Virus genome (UHGV): UHGV-0268419
From: a virus
Length of the DNA stretch: 48,249 nucleotides
Reading direction: 5' to 3' (one strand)
Under the pieces are notes generated by a model. It was given only the letters and a program-made list of their open reading frames with translations, did no database searches and had not been told where the DNA came from. A program made the position numbers and the translations under genes. Each line of letters begins with the position of its first letter. Position 1 is the stretch's first letter. This document shows positions 3,624 to 34,520 of this stretch, piece after piece.

Positions 3624-3657
3624 AAAAAAAGCCTCCTGTGTGGGAGGCTGTAGGTTA

Positions 3658-7220: not shown

Positions 7221-7245
7221 AAAAAGGCGGCCTAAGCCGCCCTGA
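7221..7245 (-). terminator. intrinsic terminator / attenuator after the major tail protein gene
   Basis: Minus-strand GGCGGC-ttag-GCCGCC followed by TTTTT, between 7258 and 7201. Confidence 0.6.
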
Positions 7246-7257
7246 TGATAGCACGCT

Positions 7258-11060: not shown

Positions 11061-11155
11061 CGCGCGATGTCCTTTGAGTGATTAAACGTCTGGATGATAA
11101 CCGGCAACTACTGGACAAGCAAGAAAAAGCCCGGCAATGCCGGGCCTGTGCTTAC

Positions 11156-13008: not shown

Positions 13009-14615
13009 TTAGCCCCCTTCTTCGGCGCGCTGGCCTTCTTCTTAGAGATCGGCTTGTCTTCCTCCGGGTCTTTATCTTCCGGCGGATTGTCCAGCCCCTG
13101 CTGGGTCTGGCGAGCAGCAGCGTTGAAGATCAGCTGCGTTTCTTCGGCACCGTCTTTCAGCTCCTGTTCAACGTCTTCCAGATCTGCATCGTTCGGGATC
13201 AGGCCGATGCGCTGCTGCCACGCGAGGAAGTCGATCATCCGCATCATCCCTGACTGCACCGCCGCCATGTAGGCTGTCAGTTCGGTCGGGTTCAGCACGA
13301 TATCTTCGTATCGCTTGTTGATATGGACGTTCGCGCCTTCGGTGCCGGTGAAGTCCTTCACCATCTCCATTGCCTGATTGAACGCCGCCTCAACGTTGCC
13401 GACGCACTGGGACAGGATTGAGTTGTCTGTTTTCTCATCCGCGCCAGCCTGGGTGGCTGTCTTCGTTGCCCCGTTGCGCTCAACCAGCTTCGCGCCCAGC
13501 ATGGCAAGCTGCTTCTCACGCTTCTCCAGCAGCGCGGCGGCCGGGGTGTTCGGTGGTGCAACGACCATGCTGGCGGTAGGCGTGCCGGTGCCCATGGATT
13601 GCAGAATGATCGCTTCGTCACCGCCGACCTTAATGCTCGGATTGTCCTTCTGAAAGTTCTGCGGTACACCGGCGATCACGAAGGTCGGCTGGCCGCAGAT
13701 GAACGAGCTGTCGGTGTTGTCGGCGTCGGCGTTGTAGTGGGCGATATTGGTGTTCGCGATGTCGGACAGCGGAGCCGGGTCAATGTCGCTGTCGTTCTTC
13801 TCGCTGCCGAACCAGCAGAAAGGCAGATAGTCGAGCTGCTTTCCGCGAGCCATGATCGGGCGCAGTTCCGGCTGCTCCTGATTCATGTTCCCGTTCTGCT
13901 GAATGACCGAGGAAGGCAGCCCGGCGGCACCCTGTAGTTCGTCCGTCCACAGGCGGGAATATGCCTTGCCATCCACCAGCCGCAGTTCAAGGTAGCGAAC
14001 CACCTGATAGTGCTCAAAGCCGTCGTAGTCGACGTCGTCCAGGTAGCGCAGCACGATGAGCGAATATTTGCCGCCGCTCTTGCGCCAGTTGATGATCTGC
14101 CGGTGGTCGAACATGCGGATAGTCGCGCGGCCACTATTGACCAGCGTAGTCACCTGCCCGACGTCCTCCGGGGCGTCATAGTCAACCAGCAGCCCACCGC
14201 GCCCGAAGGTGATGTTCTGCGCTACGCACATTCGAACGAGCTGATCCATGTCCAGCCCTTCGCCGTCGATGTCGGTCGACAGGTAGCCGATGGCCGTCGG
14301 CAAGGTGTAGGTGGCCGGTTTGGCGAACGCGATGCCGACCATACCCATCTGCGTGCGATAGGTGGCGTTGAGGAAGTGGGCGCGGCGCTTGTACGCGTTG
14401 TAACGCTTCATTGTCCACGCTTCGGGCTTCGGCAGGTACAGAACACCGGCACGCTTGATGACCGTCTGTCCTGCAACGCAGTCCTCGATAGTGCGGTATT
14501 CCTGGTTAAACCGCTTGTAAAGCGGGTGTTCGGTGGATACCGTCCCCGCCTGCGGCAGTGTCGTGATCGTCATATCATCGTACCCATTCAATATTATTTG
14601 CTGAGATCGTGCCAT
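13005..14615 (-). CDS. portal protein
   Basis: 536 aa immediately downstream of TerL, with a basic Lys-rich C-terminus. An alternative start (MTITT, 14573) lies just after the TerL stop. Confidence 0.8.
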   Translation of the reverse strand: MARSQQIILNGYDDMTITTLPQAGTVSTEHPLYKRFNQEYRTIEDCVAGQTVIKRAGVLYLPKPEAWTMKRYNAYKRRAHFLNATYRTQMGMVGIAFAKPATYTLPTAIGYLSTDIDGEGLDMDQLVRMCVAQNITFGRGGLLVDYDAPEDVGQVTTLVNSGRATIRMFDHRQIINWRKSGGKYSLIVLRYLDDVDYDGFEHYQVVRYLELRLVDGKAYSRLWTDELQGAAGLPSSVIQQNGNMNQEQPELRPIMARGKQLDYLPFCWFGSEKNDSDIDPAPLSDIANTNIAHYNADADNTDSSFICGQPTFVIAGVPQNFQKDNPSIKVGGDEAIILQSMGTGTPTASMVVAPPNTPAAALLEKREKQLAMLGAKLVERNGATKTATQAGADEKTDNSILSQCVGNVEAAFNQAMEMVKDFTGTEGANVHINKRYEDIVLNPTELTAYMAAVQSGMMRMIDFLAWQQRIGLIPNDADLEDVEQELKDGAEETQLIFNAAARQTQQGLDNPPEDKDPEEDKPISKKKASAPKKGAK

Positions 14616-15936
14616 TATGCACGACAGGGAACTTATAGACCACCGGGTAGGTGCCTGCGTCGTTCATGTGATCCTTCCCGGCCTCCTTGTCAGGCTTACC
14701 CTTGTCGTCGTAGATCTGCTGCTCCAGACATTCGACGAATTGCGGGCACCGCTTGCTGCTCACGAATAGCCGACGGCGGCCGCTGGCGTTGCAGAACAGG
14801 GTGTTCGCGCTGATCACCCTGTCCTTCACGGCAGGGTTGGCCTGCCCACAGTAGACGTCGAACCCTGCGCTCATGAGCATCGACAGGTCTGACATGCTGG
14901 CGTTCTTGCTGCTGGTGTTGCCGCCTGACGCATCCGGGTAGACCTCGATCGGGTGGATGTAGCCATTTCCCGAGTTCTGGTACTTCTCGACCAGCCAGCG
15001 GATGACGTCCGGTGTGTCGATGCCGTTGTGTCGCTCATCCACTGCATGCAGTTCGGCAAGGCCGTCCTCGCCATAGCGCTCGACGTAGACGACGGTCGCC
15101 ATCTTGTTAACGTTGAAGTCCTGGCCGACGATCAGCGTCTCGCCCGGGATGATCTCCACGTCGGTGTCATTCAGATCTCGCTTAAAGTTCTTATAGACCG
15201 TGCCCGATTTCAGGTTGACGAATTGCCCCTTCGCGTAGGCTTCGAAGCGCTGCGGGTCGTAGCTGGCGCGCAGGGCGTCCAGGTAGTCGGCAGGCAGGAA
15301 TGGGTTGGATGAGGTGGCGGCCTGGATCATGAGATAACCGGCTTTGCGGCTGCGCTCCTTGTCCTTCGCCCAGCGGCCATACAGGAAGTTAAACCCCTCG
15401 GGCGTGCAGTAGGCGCTAACCCTATTCAGCGGGCGGTCGGACGGAAGGAAGTCGAATGGCTCATACTCCTTCGGTGACTGACGGCAGCGGGCAATGGCTG
15501 CGCGCCAGACCCCTTTGGCCGCCTCTTTCTTGAGGGTGTCGATCTCATCGCAGTGGACGCGGAACGCCTCCCAGCCGACCAGGCGAGTCGGGTTGTCCAT
15601 GGAGCGAAAGAGGAAGTCGCCGATCCCGCCGTGGGAGGTGTAGATCTCCTTGTTGCCGACGGTCTTAAAGCGAATGCCCAGCTCGGATAGGATCTGTTCG
15701 ATACGCGGCACTGCGATCAGCTTGCACAGGTCGAACGTTGGCTCAAGGATGGCGATCGTGGCATCTGCGCCACCCTCTGAGGCGTCAAGCACGGACGACA
15801 CGGCCATGGTCTGACTCTTGCCTGTACCGAAGCCCGCCACGAATGCAGGGTGTTTGCACGACAGTTGCAGAAAGTCGTTCTGCGGTGGTGTGAGTGTCAG
15901 GTCAATGAATTGACTGGCGTCAGATTGGATAGACAT
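14575..15936 (-). CDS. terL: terminase large subunit
   Basis: Walker A GFGTGKSQ and a C-terminal nuclease region. The start was reassigned to MSIQSD (15936) because the annotated N-terminal 10 codons coincide with a perfect terminator hairpin. Confidence 0.85.
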   Translation of the reverse strand: MSIQSDASQFIDLTLTPPQNDFLQLSCKHPAFVAGFGTGKSQTMAVSSVLDASEGGADATIAILEPTFDLCKLIAVPRIEQILSELGIRFKTVGNKEIYTSHGGIGDFLFRSMDNPTRLVGWEAFRVHCDEIDTLKKEAAKGVWRAAIARCRQSPKEYEPFDFLPSDRPLNRVSAYCTPEGFNFLYGRWAKDKERSRKAGYLMIQAATSSNPFLPADYLDALRASYDPQRFEAYAKGQFVNLKSGTVYKNFKRDLNDTDVEIIPGETLIVGQDFNVNKMATVVYVERYGEDGLAELHAVDERHNGIDTPDVIRWLVEKYQNSGNGYIHPIEVYPDASGGNTSSKNASMSDLSMLMSAGFDVYCGQANPAVKDRVISANTLFCNASGRRRLFVSSKRCPQFVECLEQQIYDDKGKPDKEAGKDHMNDAGTYPVVYKFPVVHNGTISANNIEWVR

Positions 15937-15966
15937 AAAAAAGCCCCGTTGTGTTAACGGGGCCAT
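15937..15966 (-). terminator. strong intrinsic terminator immediately upstream of terL
   Basis: Minus-strand GCCCCGTT-aacac-AACGGGGC followed by TTTTTT, then ATG. Confidence 0.7.
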
Positions 15967-15982
15967 GATAGCAGTTGTCAGG

Positions 15983-16186
15983 TCAGGATAGCACGCGGAG
16001 GAAAGCTGTGTACCTGGTGGCGATGTGCGCTACACCGACCAGGAGGAAGACCGCGAGCACCAGCTTGGTGATCTGGCTGACCGGGTTGGCCTTGAGCCGC
16101 TCCCTGTCCATTGCGGCCATGTGAATTGCGATCATCGCGATAGCTGTCACCAGCGCCAACCACACACCCATTACGATCCCCATCAT
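15983..16186 (-). CDS. small 2-TM membrane protein
   Basis: MMGIVMGVWLALVTAIAMIAI...LAVFLLVGVAHIA, with a GAGGTGG RBS. Part of the cassette between terS and terL. Confidence 0.55.
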   Translation of the reverse strand: MMGIVMGVWLALVTAIAMIAIHMAAMDRERLKANPVSQITKLVLAVFLLVGVAHIATRYTAFLRVLS

Positions 16187-16270
16187 TTCCACCTCGCTGC
16201 GAGTCTCATTAAAGCCTATCAGTCAGCCACTTCGGTGATCAACCGGGCAAATGGTACAAAGTGTAAGCAA

Positions 16271-16483
16271 TCAGAACAATCCGAGGGTGCGAAGGAAGCC
16301 CGCGACGATGAACAGCCAGCACGCCCAGCGGAACACGTCGCCAGCGATGTCGAAGGTGCGAGCCATCCTGATCATGCGCTTGTCTTTCCCGGCTCCGATA
16401 TCCAGGGCCGTCGCCCACCCTTTGCAGCAGAGAAAGCAAAACATGCACAGAATGGCGCTAAAGACTGGGTAGAAGGTCTGCAT
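16271..16483 (-). CDS. small 2-TM, Cys-rich membrane protein
   Basis: FYPVFSAILCMFCFLCC...WACWLFIVAGFL. A GAGGTG RBS sits after a hairpin GCGGCCC-N5-GGGCCGC. Confidence 0.55.
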   Translation of the reverse strand: MQTFYPVFSAILCMFCFLCCKGWATALDIGAGKDKRMIRMARTFDIAGDVFRWACWLFIVAGFLRTLGLF

Positions 16484-16535
16484 TGATTCACCTCATTGCG
16501 GCCCGTCGTGGGCCGCTGGTTAATGATTTGATGGG

Positions 16536-18134
16536 TTACATGGTCAGCTTATCAAGTTCGTTCTTGATGGCTTGCTTTAACGCGCTGCTCATCTCCTCCC
16601 GGACGACTTCGCGAATGGCCTCTTTCATCTCCTCGCCCAGGGTCAGCTTGCTGGCGGGAATGTTTCCGGCGATCACCGCGTTGCCGTGTTTGAGCATGGC
16701 CCAGCTTCCATTGCTGGCAACGACATCCCCTTTAAGCTGGGTGACTTTCAGTGTGCCGCACATGGTGTGCTCCGCTGGCCCGTCGATGCCCTCTGCGGTC
16801 GCCTTCACCTTTGCCTTCACCATCGAAAGAAGTTGTTCAGTGCTGTGAATGCCTGCCGGTGCGTTGGTGTACCCGCGCGCCCAAATAACCCACGCGTCAC
16901 GCTGTGCAACGACATCCTTCACGATCTGCTCCAGTGACTCAATGCGCTCCTTGCGCTTGCGCATCGCTGCGGTGATGGCAGTCCGCTGCGCCTCGCCGCC
17001 CAGTGATGACGGGCTGCAAATGACGTCTGTAGCCCAGTCGTGCCACTCATTGAGCTGACAATACAGGCGATCAATGGTGTCCGCCTGGCGCTTCACGGTG
17101 TCACGGTCAACGGCGGTGCCTGCTTTCATGTCTTCCACGAGCTGCTTATAGCTGGCGATCTCCAGACCAGCGTTAGCCAGGCGTGCTGCGAGTTCGCTGT
17201 TATTCTTGCTCATCGCCTTCGCGTCATTGGTGAGCGCAGTGCAGCGTTGCGTTGCTGCGCCGATGATGTCGCGCTTCTCTGCGATCTCTGTGTGCAGGCG
17301 GTCAATGATTTCTAACAGCTTGCTGATCTCCTTGCGTTTCTCGACCAGTTCGTTAGCCAGCTGGTTAGCCTGCTGCCCGTTCTTGTCGCGCTGGCGCACC
17401 AGGTCGACGACAGTCTGATCGAGGTGCTCGTTGCGCTTTTGCAGGTGGGCGATCTCCTCCGCTGCGTTGCGGTTGAGGTTGATCACGTCGTCCCGCTCCC
17501 GCTCTGCGGCCTCCCTCAGCTGGTCTGATGCGTAGGCTCTGTTGTGCATGGCGTTATAGTCCTTGTTCAGCTGCTTGTTTTTGTTGTGTGCGCTTTCGAT
17601 AGCCGCCGTCATGATTAGGCGAAGATTCCGGTCGTTGGAGTTGCTGGTGGGGTAGGTGGCGAAGTAGGTATCCAGGACGTGCCGGGTGTGCGTGCGCCAG
17701 TCGTTCAGGTTGCCAGCTGCTACAGAAAGATCTTCTGAGCGCTCATCCAGGCGCTGCACGATCGTTTCTATGCCAGCGGCAATGCGCTTACGCTTCTCTT
17801 CCGGCTTCATGTTGACCACCGGCAGGCACTTGAACTTCTGCTCAAGCATTTCGACGCCGAACACCTCCCACTCGCTGAGCGCCTTGATCTTGCTGTCGCG
17901 ATCAGCCTCAAGCGATGCCATAACCTTCATGACGCCCTCAAGGCCCAGCGCCAGGGCAAGCAGGGTGCCGACCTTGATTTTCACGTGCTGCTCAGCACCA
18001 CGGTCTGCGATCTCGACGACGATGGCGCGCGCCAGCTTGAGGTTATTTTCTGCACCTGCCTCGCGGGAAGCGCAAGCGAGAACGCCGCTAACTGGTGCCG
18101 GTGCCGGGGAGGTGAATTTCAGTGATTCAGTCAT
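16536..18134 (-). CDS. 532-aa coiled-coil protein of unknown function, an accessory (moron) gene between terS and terL
   Basis: Long heptad-like helical segments and no Walker motifs. It has its own upstream TTGACA-N17/18-(G)AATAT promoter and hairpin. Confidence 0.6.
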   Translation of the reverse strand: MTESLKFTSPAPAPVSGVLACASREAGAENNLKLARAIVVEIADRGAEQHVKIKVGTLLALALGLEGVMKVMASLEADRDSKIKALSEWEVFGVEMLEQKFKCLPVVNMKPEEKRKRIAAGIETIVQRLDERSEDLSVAAGNLNDWRTHTRHVLDTYFATYPTSNSNDRNLRLIMTAAIESAHNKNKQLNKDYNAMHNRAYASDQLREAAERERDDVINLNRNAAEEIAHLQKRNEHLDQTVVDLVRQRDKNGQQANQLANELVEKRKEISKLLEIIDRLHTEIAEKRDIIGAATQRCTALTNDAKAMSKNNSELAARLANAGLEIASYKQLVEDMKAGTAVDRDTVKRQADTIDRLYCQLNEWHDWATDVICSPSSLGGEAQRTAITAAMRKRKERIESLEQIVKDVVAQRDAWVIWARGYTNAPAGIHSTEQLLSMVKAKVKATAEGIDGPAEHTMCGTLKVTQLKGDVVASNGSWAMLKHGNAVIAGNIPASKLTLGEEMKEAIREVVREEMSSALKQAIKNELDKLTM

Positions 18135-18211
18135 TTTGATGTCCTGTGCAGTAGGGGCAGGATTGCCCGGCCCCTATATTCCTGCGCAGTCATATATATG
18201 TCAAGCAGTAT
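18135..18211 (-). promoter_or_regulatory. promoter plus hairpin in the terS-cassette intergenic region
   Basis: Minus strand reads cTTGACAtatatatgactgcgcaggAATATAgGGGCcgggcaatcctGCCCCt...AGGAcatcaaaATG. Confidence 0.45.
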
Positions 18212-18709
18212 TTAGTCGTCACCCCAGTCGACGGCTTCGGACTCCTCGCGCGGCTTCTCATCTTTCGGCCGCTCGCTGACGATCTTCAACCGCACCGGCT
18301 TGTTGGCATCACCGGTCACGACGATCTCAGTGTTGTCGCGATAGCCGAAGTTCGCTTTCAGCATGAAGGTCGCGAAAGTGCTGTTCGTGGCGAAGCCAAT
18401 ATTCAGAATCATCTGCTCGTAAAGCTCGCGCGCCTGCGTGTAAGCGACAGAAAATTCCTTATGCTTCGAACGCCAGTCGTGAAAAGTCGTCGTCGTGATG
18501 CCGATGCTCTCGCAGAAGTTGAGAATAGACGGCATGTTCTTCGGGTTAATGCGGATGTTGCTCTTCCCGGCTGTCGTGTGTGAGTGCTGGATATAGTCAT
18601 CGACGTCGACACGGAAATATTCAAGGAGTTTTTCCGGCATGTCCTCGGTGTAGCTGGTTGGTCTGCCGACTGGGTTCCGAGGTGTCGTTACCTTCACCTT
18701 ATCAGTCAT
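18212..18709 (-). CDS. terS: terminase small subunit (Terminase_2-like)
   Basis: The start was reassigned to MTDKVKV, which has a strong GAGGAAAA RBS. Shows the GRPTSYT HTH, HDWRSKHKEF...AY.QAREL.E...L...FMLKANFGYRD pattern. Confidence 0.8.
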   Translation of the reverse strand: MTDKVKVTTPRNPVGRPTSYTEDMPEKLLEYFRVDVDDYIQHSHTTAGKSNIRINPKNMPSILNFCESIGITTTTFHDWRSKHKEFSVAYTQARELYEQMILNIGFATNSTFATFMLKANFGYRDNTEIVVTGDANKPVRLKIVSERPKDEKPREESEAVDWGDD

Positions 18710-18777: not shown

Positions 18778-18804
18778 CGCGCAGCCACTGCGTAGCGCTT
18801 TTTT
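18778..18804. terminator. bidirectional hairpin terminator upstream of terS
   Basis: aaaaacGCGCAGccaCTGCGtagcgcTTTTTT. Confidence 0.5.
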
Positions 18805-18866: not shown

Positions 18867-19197
18867 GGATACCACCTAACACCCGAAATTAACCCTTTCA
18901 TATCAGCTACTTGCAATCGTCAGGTATTGAGCATTTTTAACCGGCCACCTGAGTTAATCATTGCGATTCAATAACTTAGTATTTTCACCGTTCGAAGCGC
19001 GGCAGAACACCTCCGCCTGAGCTGTTGCCGGTACTGTATACGCGTTTTATGTGCTCAATTTGTGTACAGGTGTTCTGTGGATAACTTTTTTCCATCCGCT
19101 TGATTTGGCTGGGAAATATAATATTGATACGGGGGAGTCCCCCTCCGCATTGTTTACATACTGTATAAACACGCAAAAACCGCCATGATTTCAGGTG
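18867..19197. repeat. cluster of CCACCT(N)GAAAT iteron-like repeats, including the 22-mer ATACCACCTAACACCCGAAATT; candidate origin or regulatory region beside the rep gene
   Basis: Copies at 18867-18888 (+), 18949-18962 (+) and 19186-19197 (-), with degenerate CACCT/AGGTG copies at ~19008 and ~19063. A DnaA-box TGTGGATAA is at 19074-19082. A GGGGG-agt-CCCCC hairpin is at 19131-19143. Confidence 0.45.
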
Positions 19198-19211: not shown

Positions 19212-19240
19212 TTGACACGGTATTACCTGCCGTGAATAAT
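19212..19240 (+). promoter_or_regulatory. sigma70-type promoter for the rep operon
   Basis: TTGACA-17-AATAAT. Its leader GTCCGAACCAAAGCAGGAGG is homologous to the leaders at 34496 and 30844. Confidence 0.6.
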
Positions 19241-25920: not shown

Positions 25921-25946
25921 AAGGGGCCAAATGGCCCCCTGTTTTT
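25921..25946. terminator. bidirectional intrinsic terminator between convergent operons
   Basis: GGGGCC-aaat-GGCCCC with TTTTTT on the plus strand and an A-run upstream. Confidence 0.7.
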
Positions 25947-26443
25947 TACACCTTCGCGTTCCGGCCAACGGCCTCAGCATCCCGCCAGTTCATCCCCTTC
26001 GCCAGCGCCTGCCGCGCCAGTGCCCGGCGAACCAGCCCGGGAATGATCTTGCCGCCCTGCTTGCGGAAGAACTCCAGCTGAACGATCAGCTCATCCCAGC
26101 GACCTTGCGTCACCAGGTCGTCGAAGTCTCCCGCCTTCTTGTCCGGCTTGATTGGCTCTTCACCGGCATTGATGACCAGATCAACCAGTGCGTCGAAGAT
26201 GGGTTGCGTGATGGACTTGTGCGCCCACTCGTTCACCTTCTTCTCAGCATAGGCGACGTCTTCACGCAGGATCGCCAGCGCGGCTTCTCGCGTGATGTTG
26301 ATGCGTGGAGGGTTGCGGCCAGTGTGCCCGAAGCCCCAGGTGTAGATCCCGCGACGGCGCTCGTCTTCGGTGGCGAAGTAAGGCGCGCTGCGGAATTTCT
26401 CCCATGCTGCTGTAAATTGCAGCCCGTTGTCACTCATCCTCAT
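25946..26443 (-). CDS. endolysin (GH24 T4-lysozyme-like)
   Basis: Catalytic E/D/T pattern (EDERRRGIYTWGFGHTG); ATGA overlap with Rz. Confidence 0.8.
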   Translation of the reverse strand: MRMSDNGLQFTAAWEKFRSAPYFATEDERRRGIYTWGFGHTGRNPPRINITREAALAILREDVAYAEKKVNEWAHKSITQPIFDALVDLVINAGEEPIKPDKKAGDFDDLVTQGRWDELIVQLEFFRKQGGKIIPGLVRRALARQALAKGMNWRDAEAVGRNAKV

Positions 26444-27235: not shown

Positions 27236-27326
27236 CCGATAGATGTCGGTGATGCCGTGGAAGAAGTCGCCCAAAAGAAAAGCCCCCGTGAATGTTAACG
27301 GGGGCCATGATAAGCGCAAAGTCTAT

Positions 27327-34471: not shown

Positions 34472-34520
34472 TTGACAGGGCATATTATGCGGAAGTAATA
34501 TGCCCGAACACCCCACAGGA
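34472..34520 (+). promoter_or_regulatory. consensus promoter with a conserved leader (copy 3 of 3) and a 10-bp inverted repeat
   Basis: TTGACA-18-TAATATGCCCGAACACCCCACAGGAGG, with the palindrome GGGCATATTA-N8-TAATATGCCC. Confidence 0.6.

Follow-up and report, generated by a model that had tools for sequence, protein, structure and literature searches.

The phage genes for the small and large terminase subunits (terS and terL) usually are adjacent or overlapping. They overlap by 11 nt in Jerseyvirus (ZCSE9) and lie next to each other in MED16, where terS, terL, and the portal gene are open reading frames (ORFs) 1-3 (PMC8306585). Why, then, are these genes held apart in the virus genome UHGV-0268419? 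This stretch of 48,249 nucleotides (the window) carries 2,275 bp between the terS stop codon (18212) and the conserved terL ATG (15936), which matches the gap of 2.3 kb noted in an earlier inspection of the letters alone (the sequence-only reading). That reading described the gap as a three-gene cassette bracketed by a promoter and a terminator. We tentatively propose that the gap holds an autonomous three-gene accessory operon that is expressed early, is anchored in the membrane, and serves exclusion or counter-defense. The three genes are called p532, p70, and p67 here.

The window represents the complete, or nearly complete, genome of a virulent ~48-kb Klebsiella siphophage in the vB_Kp3/HSE3 lineage. 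Across the region, it shares 95-98% nucleotide identity with vB_KpnS-MUC-5, vB_Kp3, and phiKp_14, among others. These relatives are unclassified Caudoviricetes, and they are described as lytic or are predicted to be virulent. The terS, cassette, terL, and portal genes all lie on the minus strand, in the order terS, p532, p70, p67, terL, portal.

The cassette begins with a putative sigma-70 promoter of the early type, AAATACTGC-TTGACA-N17-GAATAT (18176..18209, minus strand), which starts at the terS stop codon. The TTGACA element occupies positions 18204-18199 and is followed, after a 17-nt spacer, by a −10 element GAATAT at 18181-18176. This −10 element matches TATAAT at three of six positions and the phage's own −10 consensus, TAATAT, at five of six. 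The promoter was first read as TTGACA...AATATA with an adjoining hairpin; both elements are present, and AATATA is the GAATAT site read one base further. Among the 16 TTGACA sites in the window, six have a TAATAT-like −10 element at 16-18 nt, including the cassette site, and all six precede genes. Neither TTGACA nor the A and T anchors of the −10 element vary among 10 genomes from three clades, and the promoter also is kept in a fourth, metagenomic clade. The non-coding sequence around these elements has diverged to saturation.

Directly after the −10 element is a 23-nt hairpin, AGGGGCCGGGCAATCCTGCCCCT (18153..18175, minus strand). Its 51-nt context folds at -15.4 kcal/mol, with a z-score of only -1.5. 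A compensatory change from A-T to G-C is found in K34PH164, and different complementary stems occupy the same position in EKq1 (GGCCGG/CCGGCC + T5) and in ATCEA85. The hairpin lacks a T-run in the clade of the window, whereas the EKq1 clade has T5. Either the cassette mRNA begins with this structure as a 5'-terminal stem-loop, or the structure marks where terS transcripts end.

Strong promoters of the same family, TTGACA-N17/18-TAATAT/TATATT/AATAAT, are located before replication and early genes at 19212(+), 21162(+), 21906(+), 23427(+), 34472(+), 30867(-), and 31994(-). An AAATA flank on the upstream side and a G(C/T)CCGAAC leader recur in several of them. The flank is common to the cassette promoter and the promoters at 34472(+) and 30867(-), and the leaders of the latter two are almost identical (GCCCGAACACCCnACAG).

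At the 3' end of the cassette, an intrinsic terminator, GGCCCCGTT-AACAC-AACGGGGCT followed by T5 (15937..15964, minus strand; stem-loop 15964-15942), ends at the terL ATG. A perfect terminator abutting this start codon had been described from the letters, and it is present as stated, with T5 running into the ATG. It is the top-ranked minus-strand terminator-like site of its region. Its 55-nt context folds at -17.2 kcal/mol (z = -4.3), and 0/200 shuffled sequences fold as well. The stems found across clades (GGCCCCGTT/AACGGGGCT, GCCCCTGT/ACAGGGGC, and GGCCCCTGA/TCAGGGGC) are all fully complementary, and these compensatory changes support a functional terminator hairpin. The 3' arm also contains the only Shine-Dalgarno-like element of terL, GGGG. 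Adjoining the stem is a TGCTATCAT box (15965..15973, minus strand), a putative late-promoter element resembling an extended −10 sequence, which is invariant at terL in all four clades.

The promoter, both bracketing hairpins, and the three ORFs persist across clades in which synonymous sites are saturated (dS, the synonymous divergence, is ~1.1). As judged from this cross-clade conservation, these elements exceed what chance would leave, and the promoter-to-terminator bracket is real at the level of sequence.

The largest product of the cassette, p532 (16536..18134, minus strand), is a protein of 532 amino acids (aa) that is predicted from its ORF, alignments, and an AlphaFold2 model to be soluble and almost entirely a helical, segmented coiled coil. 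It has no transmembrane (TM) segment and no signal peptide. A VLAC sequence resembles a lipobox, but the n- and h-regions of a signal peptide are missing and other clades have RLAC, so p532 was rejected as a lipoprotein. Helices are predicted at residues 55-100, 111-160, 166-339, 345-371, 380-423, 432-448, and 501-531, with a non-helical stretch of ~50 aa ahead of the last helix, in a model of low confidence. For the full-length protein (20-sequence alignment), AlphaFold2 gave a predicted local distance difference test score (pLDDT) of 57 and a predicted template modeling score (pTM) of 0.22. For the C-terminal 211 aa the values were 54 and 0.29, and both models consist of helices and unconfident loops.

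Alignment of 20 diverse homologs, with lengths of 412-588 aa, reveals a conserved N-terminal region of ~60 aa and a conserved C-terminal region of ~200 aa. The N terminus has the invariant residues F7 T8 A13 P14 L19 C21 ... QxVKIKxGxL. The middle of the protein is hypervariable, with whole coiled-coil blocks inserted, deleted, or exchanged between lineages. Four repeats at residues 86, 143, 361, and 412 mark helix breaks. Each consists of xxW, ~8 residues, a Pro loop, and a helix restart R..I..A; the Trp module can be written L-x-E/D-W ... Pro loop ... R..I..A. Lineages seem to have shuffled these modules, and the 'WEVFGVEMLEQKFKCLPVVNMKPEEKR' module is found at a different position in EKq1-type proteins. 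Two short database proteins (83 and 137 aa) end in the last ~58 aa of p532 behind unrelated N termini, which suggests that they are further natural deletion or frameshift variants.

The sequence-only reading saw no catalytic motifs in p532, and database searches bear this out. No catalytic or other domain was detected when p532, p70, p67, and the 612-aa and 144-aa proteins of a sister clade were compared with Pfam, PHROGs, PADLOC, and NCBIfam; only sub-threshold coiled-coil noise was returned. A sequence search of the PDB gave only LapB at E=0.4 (noise). When predicted viral structures (BFVD) were searched with p532 for similar folds, the vB_Kp3 ortholog alone was returned. A profile of the p532 C-terminal domain produced eight matches among 1.84 billion representatives, and all belong to the same family or are fragments of it, except for one repeat-protein artifact. 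Structure prediction and remote homology searches, which had been proposed as a check on this protein, yielded an almost all-helical model at pLDDT 57 and no family or fold match. In a search of 5.8 billion proteins, no relatives of p532, p70, or p67 were found outside phage contigs of ~47-49 kb, and none of p67 outside the lineage. The window itself has no paralogs of the three proteins (tblastn).

Several GenBank records label p532 orthologs 'methyl-accepting chemotaxis protein I' (MUC-5, vB_Kp3, JYSS1) or 'chromosome partition protein', and these labels are artifacts. SMC, MukB, Rad50, and methyl-accepting chemotaxis proteins resemble p532 only in having long α-helical coiled-coil segments. 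The sub-threshold matches are to the coiled-coil arms of SMC proteins (SMC_prok_B, 23 bits vs 567), Rad50, LmuB, JetC, and PbeC. The SMC-type matches cover only residues ~110-410, which correspond to arm regions, and score 15-23 bits against cut-offs of 567-1087. Identity with SMC, MukB, or Rad50 was rejected, as p532 has no ATPase head, no hinge, and no AAA or SMC_N Pfam domain. Identity with a chemotaxis receptor was rejected in the same way, as there is no MCPsignal or HAMP match and no TM segment.

The two small ORFs had been described as encoding two-TM proteins of ~68 aa, one of them Cys-rich. Hydropathy and alignments agree with this description. The p70 gene (16271..16483, minus strand) encodes a 70-aa membrane protein with two TM helices and 5 Cys residues. 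An invariant CxxCFxCCKGW motif lies where TM1 ends, and the protein also has a loop that is basic and amphipathic. It is present in 31 phage records at 49-100% identity. The p67 gene (15983..16186, minus strand; alternative start 16183) has a GAGGTGG Shine-Dalgarno sequence and encodes a nearly invariant 66/67-aa protein, also with two TM helices. It is kept in 32/32 records at 83-100% identity, including two deletion variants described below.

Each cassette gene has its own Shine-Dalgarno sequence. Between p532 and p70 is the hairpin GCGGCCC-ACGAC-GGGCCGC (16498..16516, minus strand), which has no T-run and is followed by the GAGGTG Shine-Dalgarno sequence of p70. It folds at -17 kcal/mol (z = -3.6), and 0/200 shuffled sequences are as good. 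The same position holds a full terminator in ATCEA85 (GCCCCGG-TTCG-CCGGGGC-T5) and a hairpin in the metagenomic clade. The ATCEA85 terminator (L007 6200-6262) separates the coiled-coil gene from a gene for a protein with four TM helices (4-TM). Given that the hairpin of the window lacks a T-run at this site, the two clades may differ in how much coiled-coil protein they make relative to membrane protein.

Are these genes needed by the phage? If p532 were a conserved virion or packaging component, then all relatives should carry it. A comparison of terS-terL spacing, suggested earlier as a way to find presence/absence polymorphism, uncovered two independent natural deletions. In Holland_MM2, a 1.8-kb deletion joins p532 codon 19 to the p70-p67 spacer, and the promoter, p67, and the terminator are kept. 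In HSE3, an independent deletion leaves 96 aa of p532 and a 5'-truncated p70 remnant (N-terminally truncated), with p67 intact. In addition, MUC-5 p532 has an in-frame stop, and Haden_MM8 p532 is split into three ORFs. In total, p532 is deleted or disrupted in four of ~35 isolates, and p532 and p70 are lost together. All four of these phages were isolated and form plaques, which indicates that neither p532 nor p70 is an essential part of the virion or of packaging. The description of a three-gene cassette holds in that the three genes are present together, but they do not behave as one unit: p532 and p70 are co-lost, while p67 is retained in every record.

The three genes also differ in evolutionary rate. 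Ratios of nonsynonymous to synonymous divergence (dN/dS) were computed pairwise against the window sequence. The values are 0.01-0.04 for terL, 0-0.17 for terS, 0-0.13 for p67 (computed with dS up to 0.93), 0.14-0.44 for p70, and 0.25-0.54 for p532. The p532 proteins are 30-97% identical while terL is 95-100% identical. By these measures, p532 and p70 evolve roughly ten times faster than terL at the level of protein, and p67 is tightly constrained. Since dN/dS is below 1 and the ORFs are maintained in more than 30 genomes, all three are real coding genes. The doubt that the small ORFs might be untranslated is likewise answered by purifying selection and Shine-Dalgarno sequences, which point to translated genes.

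When did the cassette arrive? The same three genes are found throughout the close lineage (~32-35 GenBank genomes). The promoter-hairpin recurs in a Klebsiella aerogenes clade (ATCEA85, Diencephalon, and VLCpiS8a) and in a metagenomic clade, where it is followed by the gene for a homologous coiled-coil protein (497-626 aa), a hairpin or terminator, and the gene for a single 4-TM protein of 142-144 aa with four hydrophobic helices; TGCTATCAT, the terminator, and terL come next. The coiled-coil family of the sister clades is 43-100% identical. Downstream of the coiled-coil gene, each of the four clades has one or more membrane protein genes whose products add up to four TM helices. As the 4-TM protein has no detectable homology to p70 or p67, the constant feature is a coiled-coil protein plus four TM helices. 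A homolog from a sister clade also is carried by a 47,193-bp contig labeled Brucella melitensis, which probably is a phage genome or a contaminant in the assembly.

This distribution speaks against a recent insertion, as the cassette is old in the lineage and present in four clades. It was acquired once, before the Klebsiella clades split, with any GC deviation since gone. The spacing in the more distant Jerseyvirus and MED16, where the cassette is absent, agrees with the expectation that terS and terL are adjacent or overlapping. In Pectobacterium phage Taid (PQ008975.1, 1666-3930), the terS-terL gap holds three unrelated small genes, one of them for a 71-aa 2-TM protein. Because Taid has unrelated genes at this site and Jerseyvirus and MED16 have none, the slot is regarded as an insertion hot-spot. 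The terL gene of Taid encodes 754 aa, with an intein-like insert after the Walker A motif (AGFG|CVHPHTK...).

The term classic moron, which the sequence-only reading applied to the cassette, fits in part. As defined (Juhala et al. 2000; PMC3594210), morons show GC deviation and are expressed from the prophage to the benefit of the lysogen. The cassette is extra DNA between genes that are adjacent in relatives and has, at the level of sequence, its own promoter and terminator. However, its GC content (0.54-0.61) does not deviate from that of terL and the portal gene (0.56-0.63), and the GC profile contains no compositional island at the cassette. The near-identical, annotated genome of K34PH164 also lacks an integrase and any lysogeny module, and the relatives are lytic or predicted virulent, so no expression from a repressed prophage is expected. 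In addition, the terminator is one of several hairpin and T-run elements on the late strand and does not belong privately to an imported element, since the same box and hairpin punctuation is used genome-wide. The HK97 gene 15 element is similar in comprising extra DNA with its own promoter and terminator in a late operon and in encoding small protein(s) of the inner membrane; in HK97 this product, gp15, serves superinfection exclusion. Unlike HK97-type morons, the cassette resides in a virulent phage, has normal GC, is ancient and vertical, and has three genes, including that for a 532-aa coiled coil. Its proteins have no sequence relation to gp15/YebO.

What might such an operon do? Early transcription by host RNA polymerase is probable, given the promoter class. 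That p532 acts at the inner membrane with the small proteins is about an even call. A role in conflict, by the exclusion of superinfecting or competing phages or by counter-defense, is possible. A more specific version, which we regard as speculative and somewhat doubtful, is a hitherto undescribed two-part conflict system of virulent phages in which the fast-evolving, cytoplasmic p532 is a 'sensor or adaptor' for a four-helix membrane effector, with an early promoter and a Rex- or Imm-like function of unrelated evolution. In our main proposal, the cassette has been resident in the vB_Kp3/HSE3/ATCEA85 lineage since before the clades split. Host sigma-70 RNA polymerase would transcribe it from a promoter of the replication-module (early) class, and the intrinsic terminator would shield terL and the structural genes from early cassette transcription. 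Expression of terL would come late, either from the TGCTATCAT box or via read-through. Docking of p532 through its conserved ends on a four-helix inner-membrane platform is suggested because sister clades carry the same coiled-coil family together with a single 4-TM protein. The p532/p70 pair would be useful under some conditions, acting in conflict at the inner membrane soon after infection, as suggested by its dispensability for plaque formation, repeated loss, and fast evolution. It would most likely keep out superinfecting or competing phages or counter a membrane-acting host defense. In the more specific version, competing phages would be excluded at a DNA-entry or membrane step, or a membrane-acting Klebsiella defense would be disarmed. 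Because p67 is under far stronger constraint than p532 and p70, it probably has an additional or separate role.

Several observations weigh against an early, membrane-based conflict function. No homology to Imm, gp15, RexAB, holins, or similar proteins was found in Pfam, PHROG, PADLOC, or NCBIfam, and no known exclusion or anti-defense protein is a 500-aa coiled coil with the layout of p532. The near-invariance and universal retention of p67 are unlike typical arms-race genes. A dN/dS of ~0.4 for p532 denotes relaxed or fast evolution and is no proof of positive selection. Some disrupted alleles may be sequencing errors or laboratory-selected deletions, and the MUC-5 and Haden_MM8 disruptions in particular may reflect sequencing error. 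A generic promoter scan did not call the cassette promoter (below threshold), because its −10 element matches the Escherichia coli consensus at half of its positions. Transcripts of terS may run into the cassette, which possibly is also expressed late, since no T-run follows the 5' hairpin in this clade. Finally, the 4-TM protein of the sister clades showed no homology to p70 or p67 when their profiles were compared (probability <1%), and its description as an equivalent platform is therefore based on position and topology.

Comparison with known systems offers partial analogies for the proposed conflict function. T4 Imm and Sp are exclusion proteins of ~70-100 aa that are made early and are dispensable in single infection. 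The size and two-TM topology of p70 and p67 fit those of such small early membrane proteins of a virulent phage. However, the cassette proteins have no homology to Imm or Sp (PHROG, Pfam), which act without a large coiled-coil partner, and p67 is unusually conserved. The four-segment protein of ~142-144 aa in the sister clades resembles RexB, a 144-aa protein with four TM helices. Like the cassette, lambda RexA/RexB and mycobacteriophage Sbash gp30/gp31 combine a cytoplasmic protein with a small polytopic membrane protein and are phage-encoded and non-essential (PMC6426596, PMC11077077). In contrast to RexA, p532 is twice the size and a coiled coil. When Pfam was searched to E-values of 0.1-1, neither RexA nor RexB families were matched by p532, p70, p67, or the 612- and 144-aa proteins of the sister clade. 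Moreover, Rex is a prophage-expressed abortive infection system, which would make poor sense for a virulent phage unless exclusion takes the place of abortion.

The architecture of p532 raises another explanation. The protein could be a non-essential virion appendage, such as a fibritin- or whisker-like neck or head fiber, in which a conserved N-terminal anchor carries a segmented coiled-coil shaft that varies in length and ends in a small, β-rich C-terminal knob; the small membrane proteins would be unrelated neighbors. Its conserved N terminus, length-variable coiled coil, and ~50-aa non-helical C-terminal segment followed by a helix all suit such a fiber. The gene also lies in the morphogenesis arm in late orientation, its loss is tolerated in the laboratory as is the loss of T4 wac and hoc, and rapid change is typical of fibers that contact the host. 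However, the promoter is of the early TTGACA type rather than the TATCAT box of structural genes, membrane protein genes accompany the coiled-coil gene in each of the four clades, p532 and p70 are deleted together, and no PHROG or structural match to fiber proteins was found. The relative PMBT64 is reported to show no additional appendages in electron micrographs. We therefore consider a fiber unlikely.

The position of the cassette between the terminase genes and beside the replication module would equally suit a module that organizes phage DNA replication or packaging at the inner membrane. In that scenario, p532 would be a tethered scaffold like phi29 p16.7/p1 that raises efficiency and is non-essential. 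The combination of a coiled coil with membrane proteins, the probable early expression, and the tolerance of loss are compatible with this role. We judge it improbable, as no DNA-binding or terminase-interacting domain was detected in p532, Jerseyvirus and MED16 manage without the cassette, and a housekeeping protein would not be expected to fall to 30% identity while terL stays above 95%.

Could the cassette modulate lysis instead? Pinholins and class II holins are ~70-aa proteins with two TM helices, and the pspABC operon encodes a coiled-coil protein and two small membrane proteins. By analogy, p70 and p67 might be a holin/antiholin-like pair of class II that adjusts when lysis occurs or how intact the membrane stays, and p532 might regulate the pair from the cytoplasm in a manner comparable to PspA with PspB/C or to lysis-inhibition factors. 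The agreement of p70 and p67 with holins is limited to size and the two TM helices, and neither holin nor PspA families are matched (Pfam, PHROGs). An early constitutive promoter would sit badly with a lethal holin, and p70 can be deleted. Furthermore, a complete lysis cassette with its own holin-like ORF is located 10 kb away, behind its own TATCAT box. The main lysis genes had been placed at 25.9-27.3 kb, and an endolysin gene (25946-26443), spanin genes, and the holin-like ORF indeed are found there. A lysis function is, for these reasons, quite unlikely.

A host-takeover factor acting on the envelope or on division, for example by blocking division or remodeling the inner membrane, might raise the burst on some hosts and have no part in conflict. 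An early, membrane-associated, non-essential, and lineage-specific unit is what this explanation would predict. However, there is no similarity to known division inhibitors, and fast diversification between conserved termini suits a variable antagonist better than a conserved host target, which leaves little room for this possibility. That the cassette is decaying, functionless DNA with fortuitous promoter and terminator matches is very improbable: although four of ~35 isolates have a deleted or disrupted p532, the 1.6-kb ORF is intact in ~30 genomes across synonymous-saturated clades, dN/dS is 0.25-0.54 for p532 and <=0.13 for p67, TTGACA and the −10 element are invariant, and the hairpins show compensatory changes.

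The proposed early operon ends where late transcription may begin, and the TGCTATCAT box at this junction is part of a wider pattern. Three exact copies occur in the window, all on the late strand, compared with 0.29 expected, and 0/100 shuffles reach three. The TATCAT core has six copies on the late strand, five of them 34-51 nt upstream of start codons. The genes preceded by the core are those for terL, the major capsid protein, the tail assembly chaperone, the giant J-like fiber, and the holin-like ORF. In K34PH164, five of nine TATCAT sites qualify (binomial P ~4e-7, for a distance window chosen after the fact), and the sites at the terL, capsid, and J genes are retained in the distant ATCEA85. 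On this basis, the box probably is a late-promoter element of the extended −10 type, TGnTATcAT, in this unclassified lineage. Minus-strand (TGC)TATCAT sites are located at 402-410, 7245-7253, 11094-11099, 15965-15973, and 27307-27312.

At the terL, chaperone, and holin genes, the box adjoins a hairpin and T-run, and the hairpins at holin and terL are alike in sequence. Transcription driven by the box and starting ~7 nt downstream would begin inside the ascending arm of the terminator. A late transcript of this kind would be without the terminator hairpin, which would leave the GGGG element of terL exposed; the truncated terL leader folds at only -3.3 kcal/mol. Alternatively, late expression of terL could come from transcripts that read through the terminator in part, as at other late-strand attenuators that resemble terminators (e.g., 3630-3649). 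That element (minus strand) is a hairpin with T7 (AGCCTCC-CACAC-AGGAGGCT TTTTTTT ATG) adjoining the start codon after the tape-measure gene, and its stem includes the Shine-Dalgarno sequence AGGAGG within the 3' arm. It looks like a combined attenuator and translation control element, resembling the terL junction.

The neighboring genes are readily assigned. The terS gene (18212..18709, minus strand) encodes a P22 gp3-like small terminase (Pfam PF16677, GP3_package, E=8e-12; phrog_3064, E=1e-48). Its open frame reaches 18814, and the likely conserved start is the ATG at 18709 (MTDKV), which is preceded by an AGAGGA Shine-Dalgarno sequence; the annotated start nevertheless is 18814. The terL gene (14575..15936, minus strand) encodes a 453-aa large terminase (Pfam Terminase_6N/6C) with the conserved start MSIQS. 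A longer terL ORF begins at 15966, and GenBank records of the clade annotate the gene from there, such that the first ten 'codons' are the terminator hairpin. The ATG at 15966 is out of frame in the EKq1 clade because seven T's are present there instead of six.

Upstream of terS, hairpins with flanking A- or T-runs occur at 18780-18792 and 19130-19147, in an AT-rich region (GC 0.43-0.46) between the divergent terS and primase/helicase genes. One of these hairpins precedes the terS start by ~70 nt, which points to a small transcription unit of its own ahead of terS. Relatives annotate small ORFs upstream of terS, and terS has no preceding TATCAT box. Rfam and tRNA scans of the whole window found no RNA genes. 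The literature on HSE3, EKq1, PMBT64, MED16, K34PH164, and MUC-5 holds no functional, transcript, or virion-proteome data on the cassette genes.

The cassette is a lineage-restricted and separately punctuated module with no homology to anything characterized. It makes up ~4% of the genome as a conserved yet dispensable module in a lineage that is isolated worldwide as a source of therapy candidates against multidrug-resistant Klebsiella. Its function is directly testable because Holland_MM2 and HSE3 provide ready, near-isogenic deletion controls. The transcription grammar of the lineage, with putative early TTGACA-N17/18-TAATAT promoters and a TGCTATCAT late box fused to hairpins, should aid engineering and annotation, and the start of terL is corrected for many GenBank records. 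If the cassette does serve exclusion or anti-defense, then cocktail design would be affected, as carriers could exclude partner phages. Host range also would be affected, and the proteins would add a new family to the repertoire that phages use in conflict.

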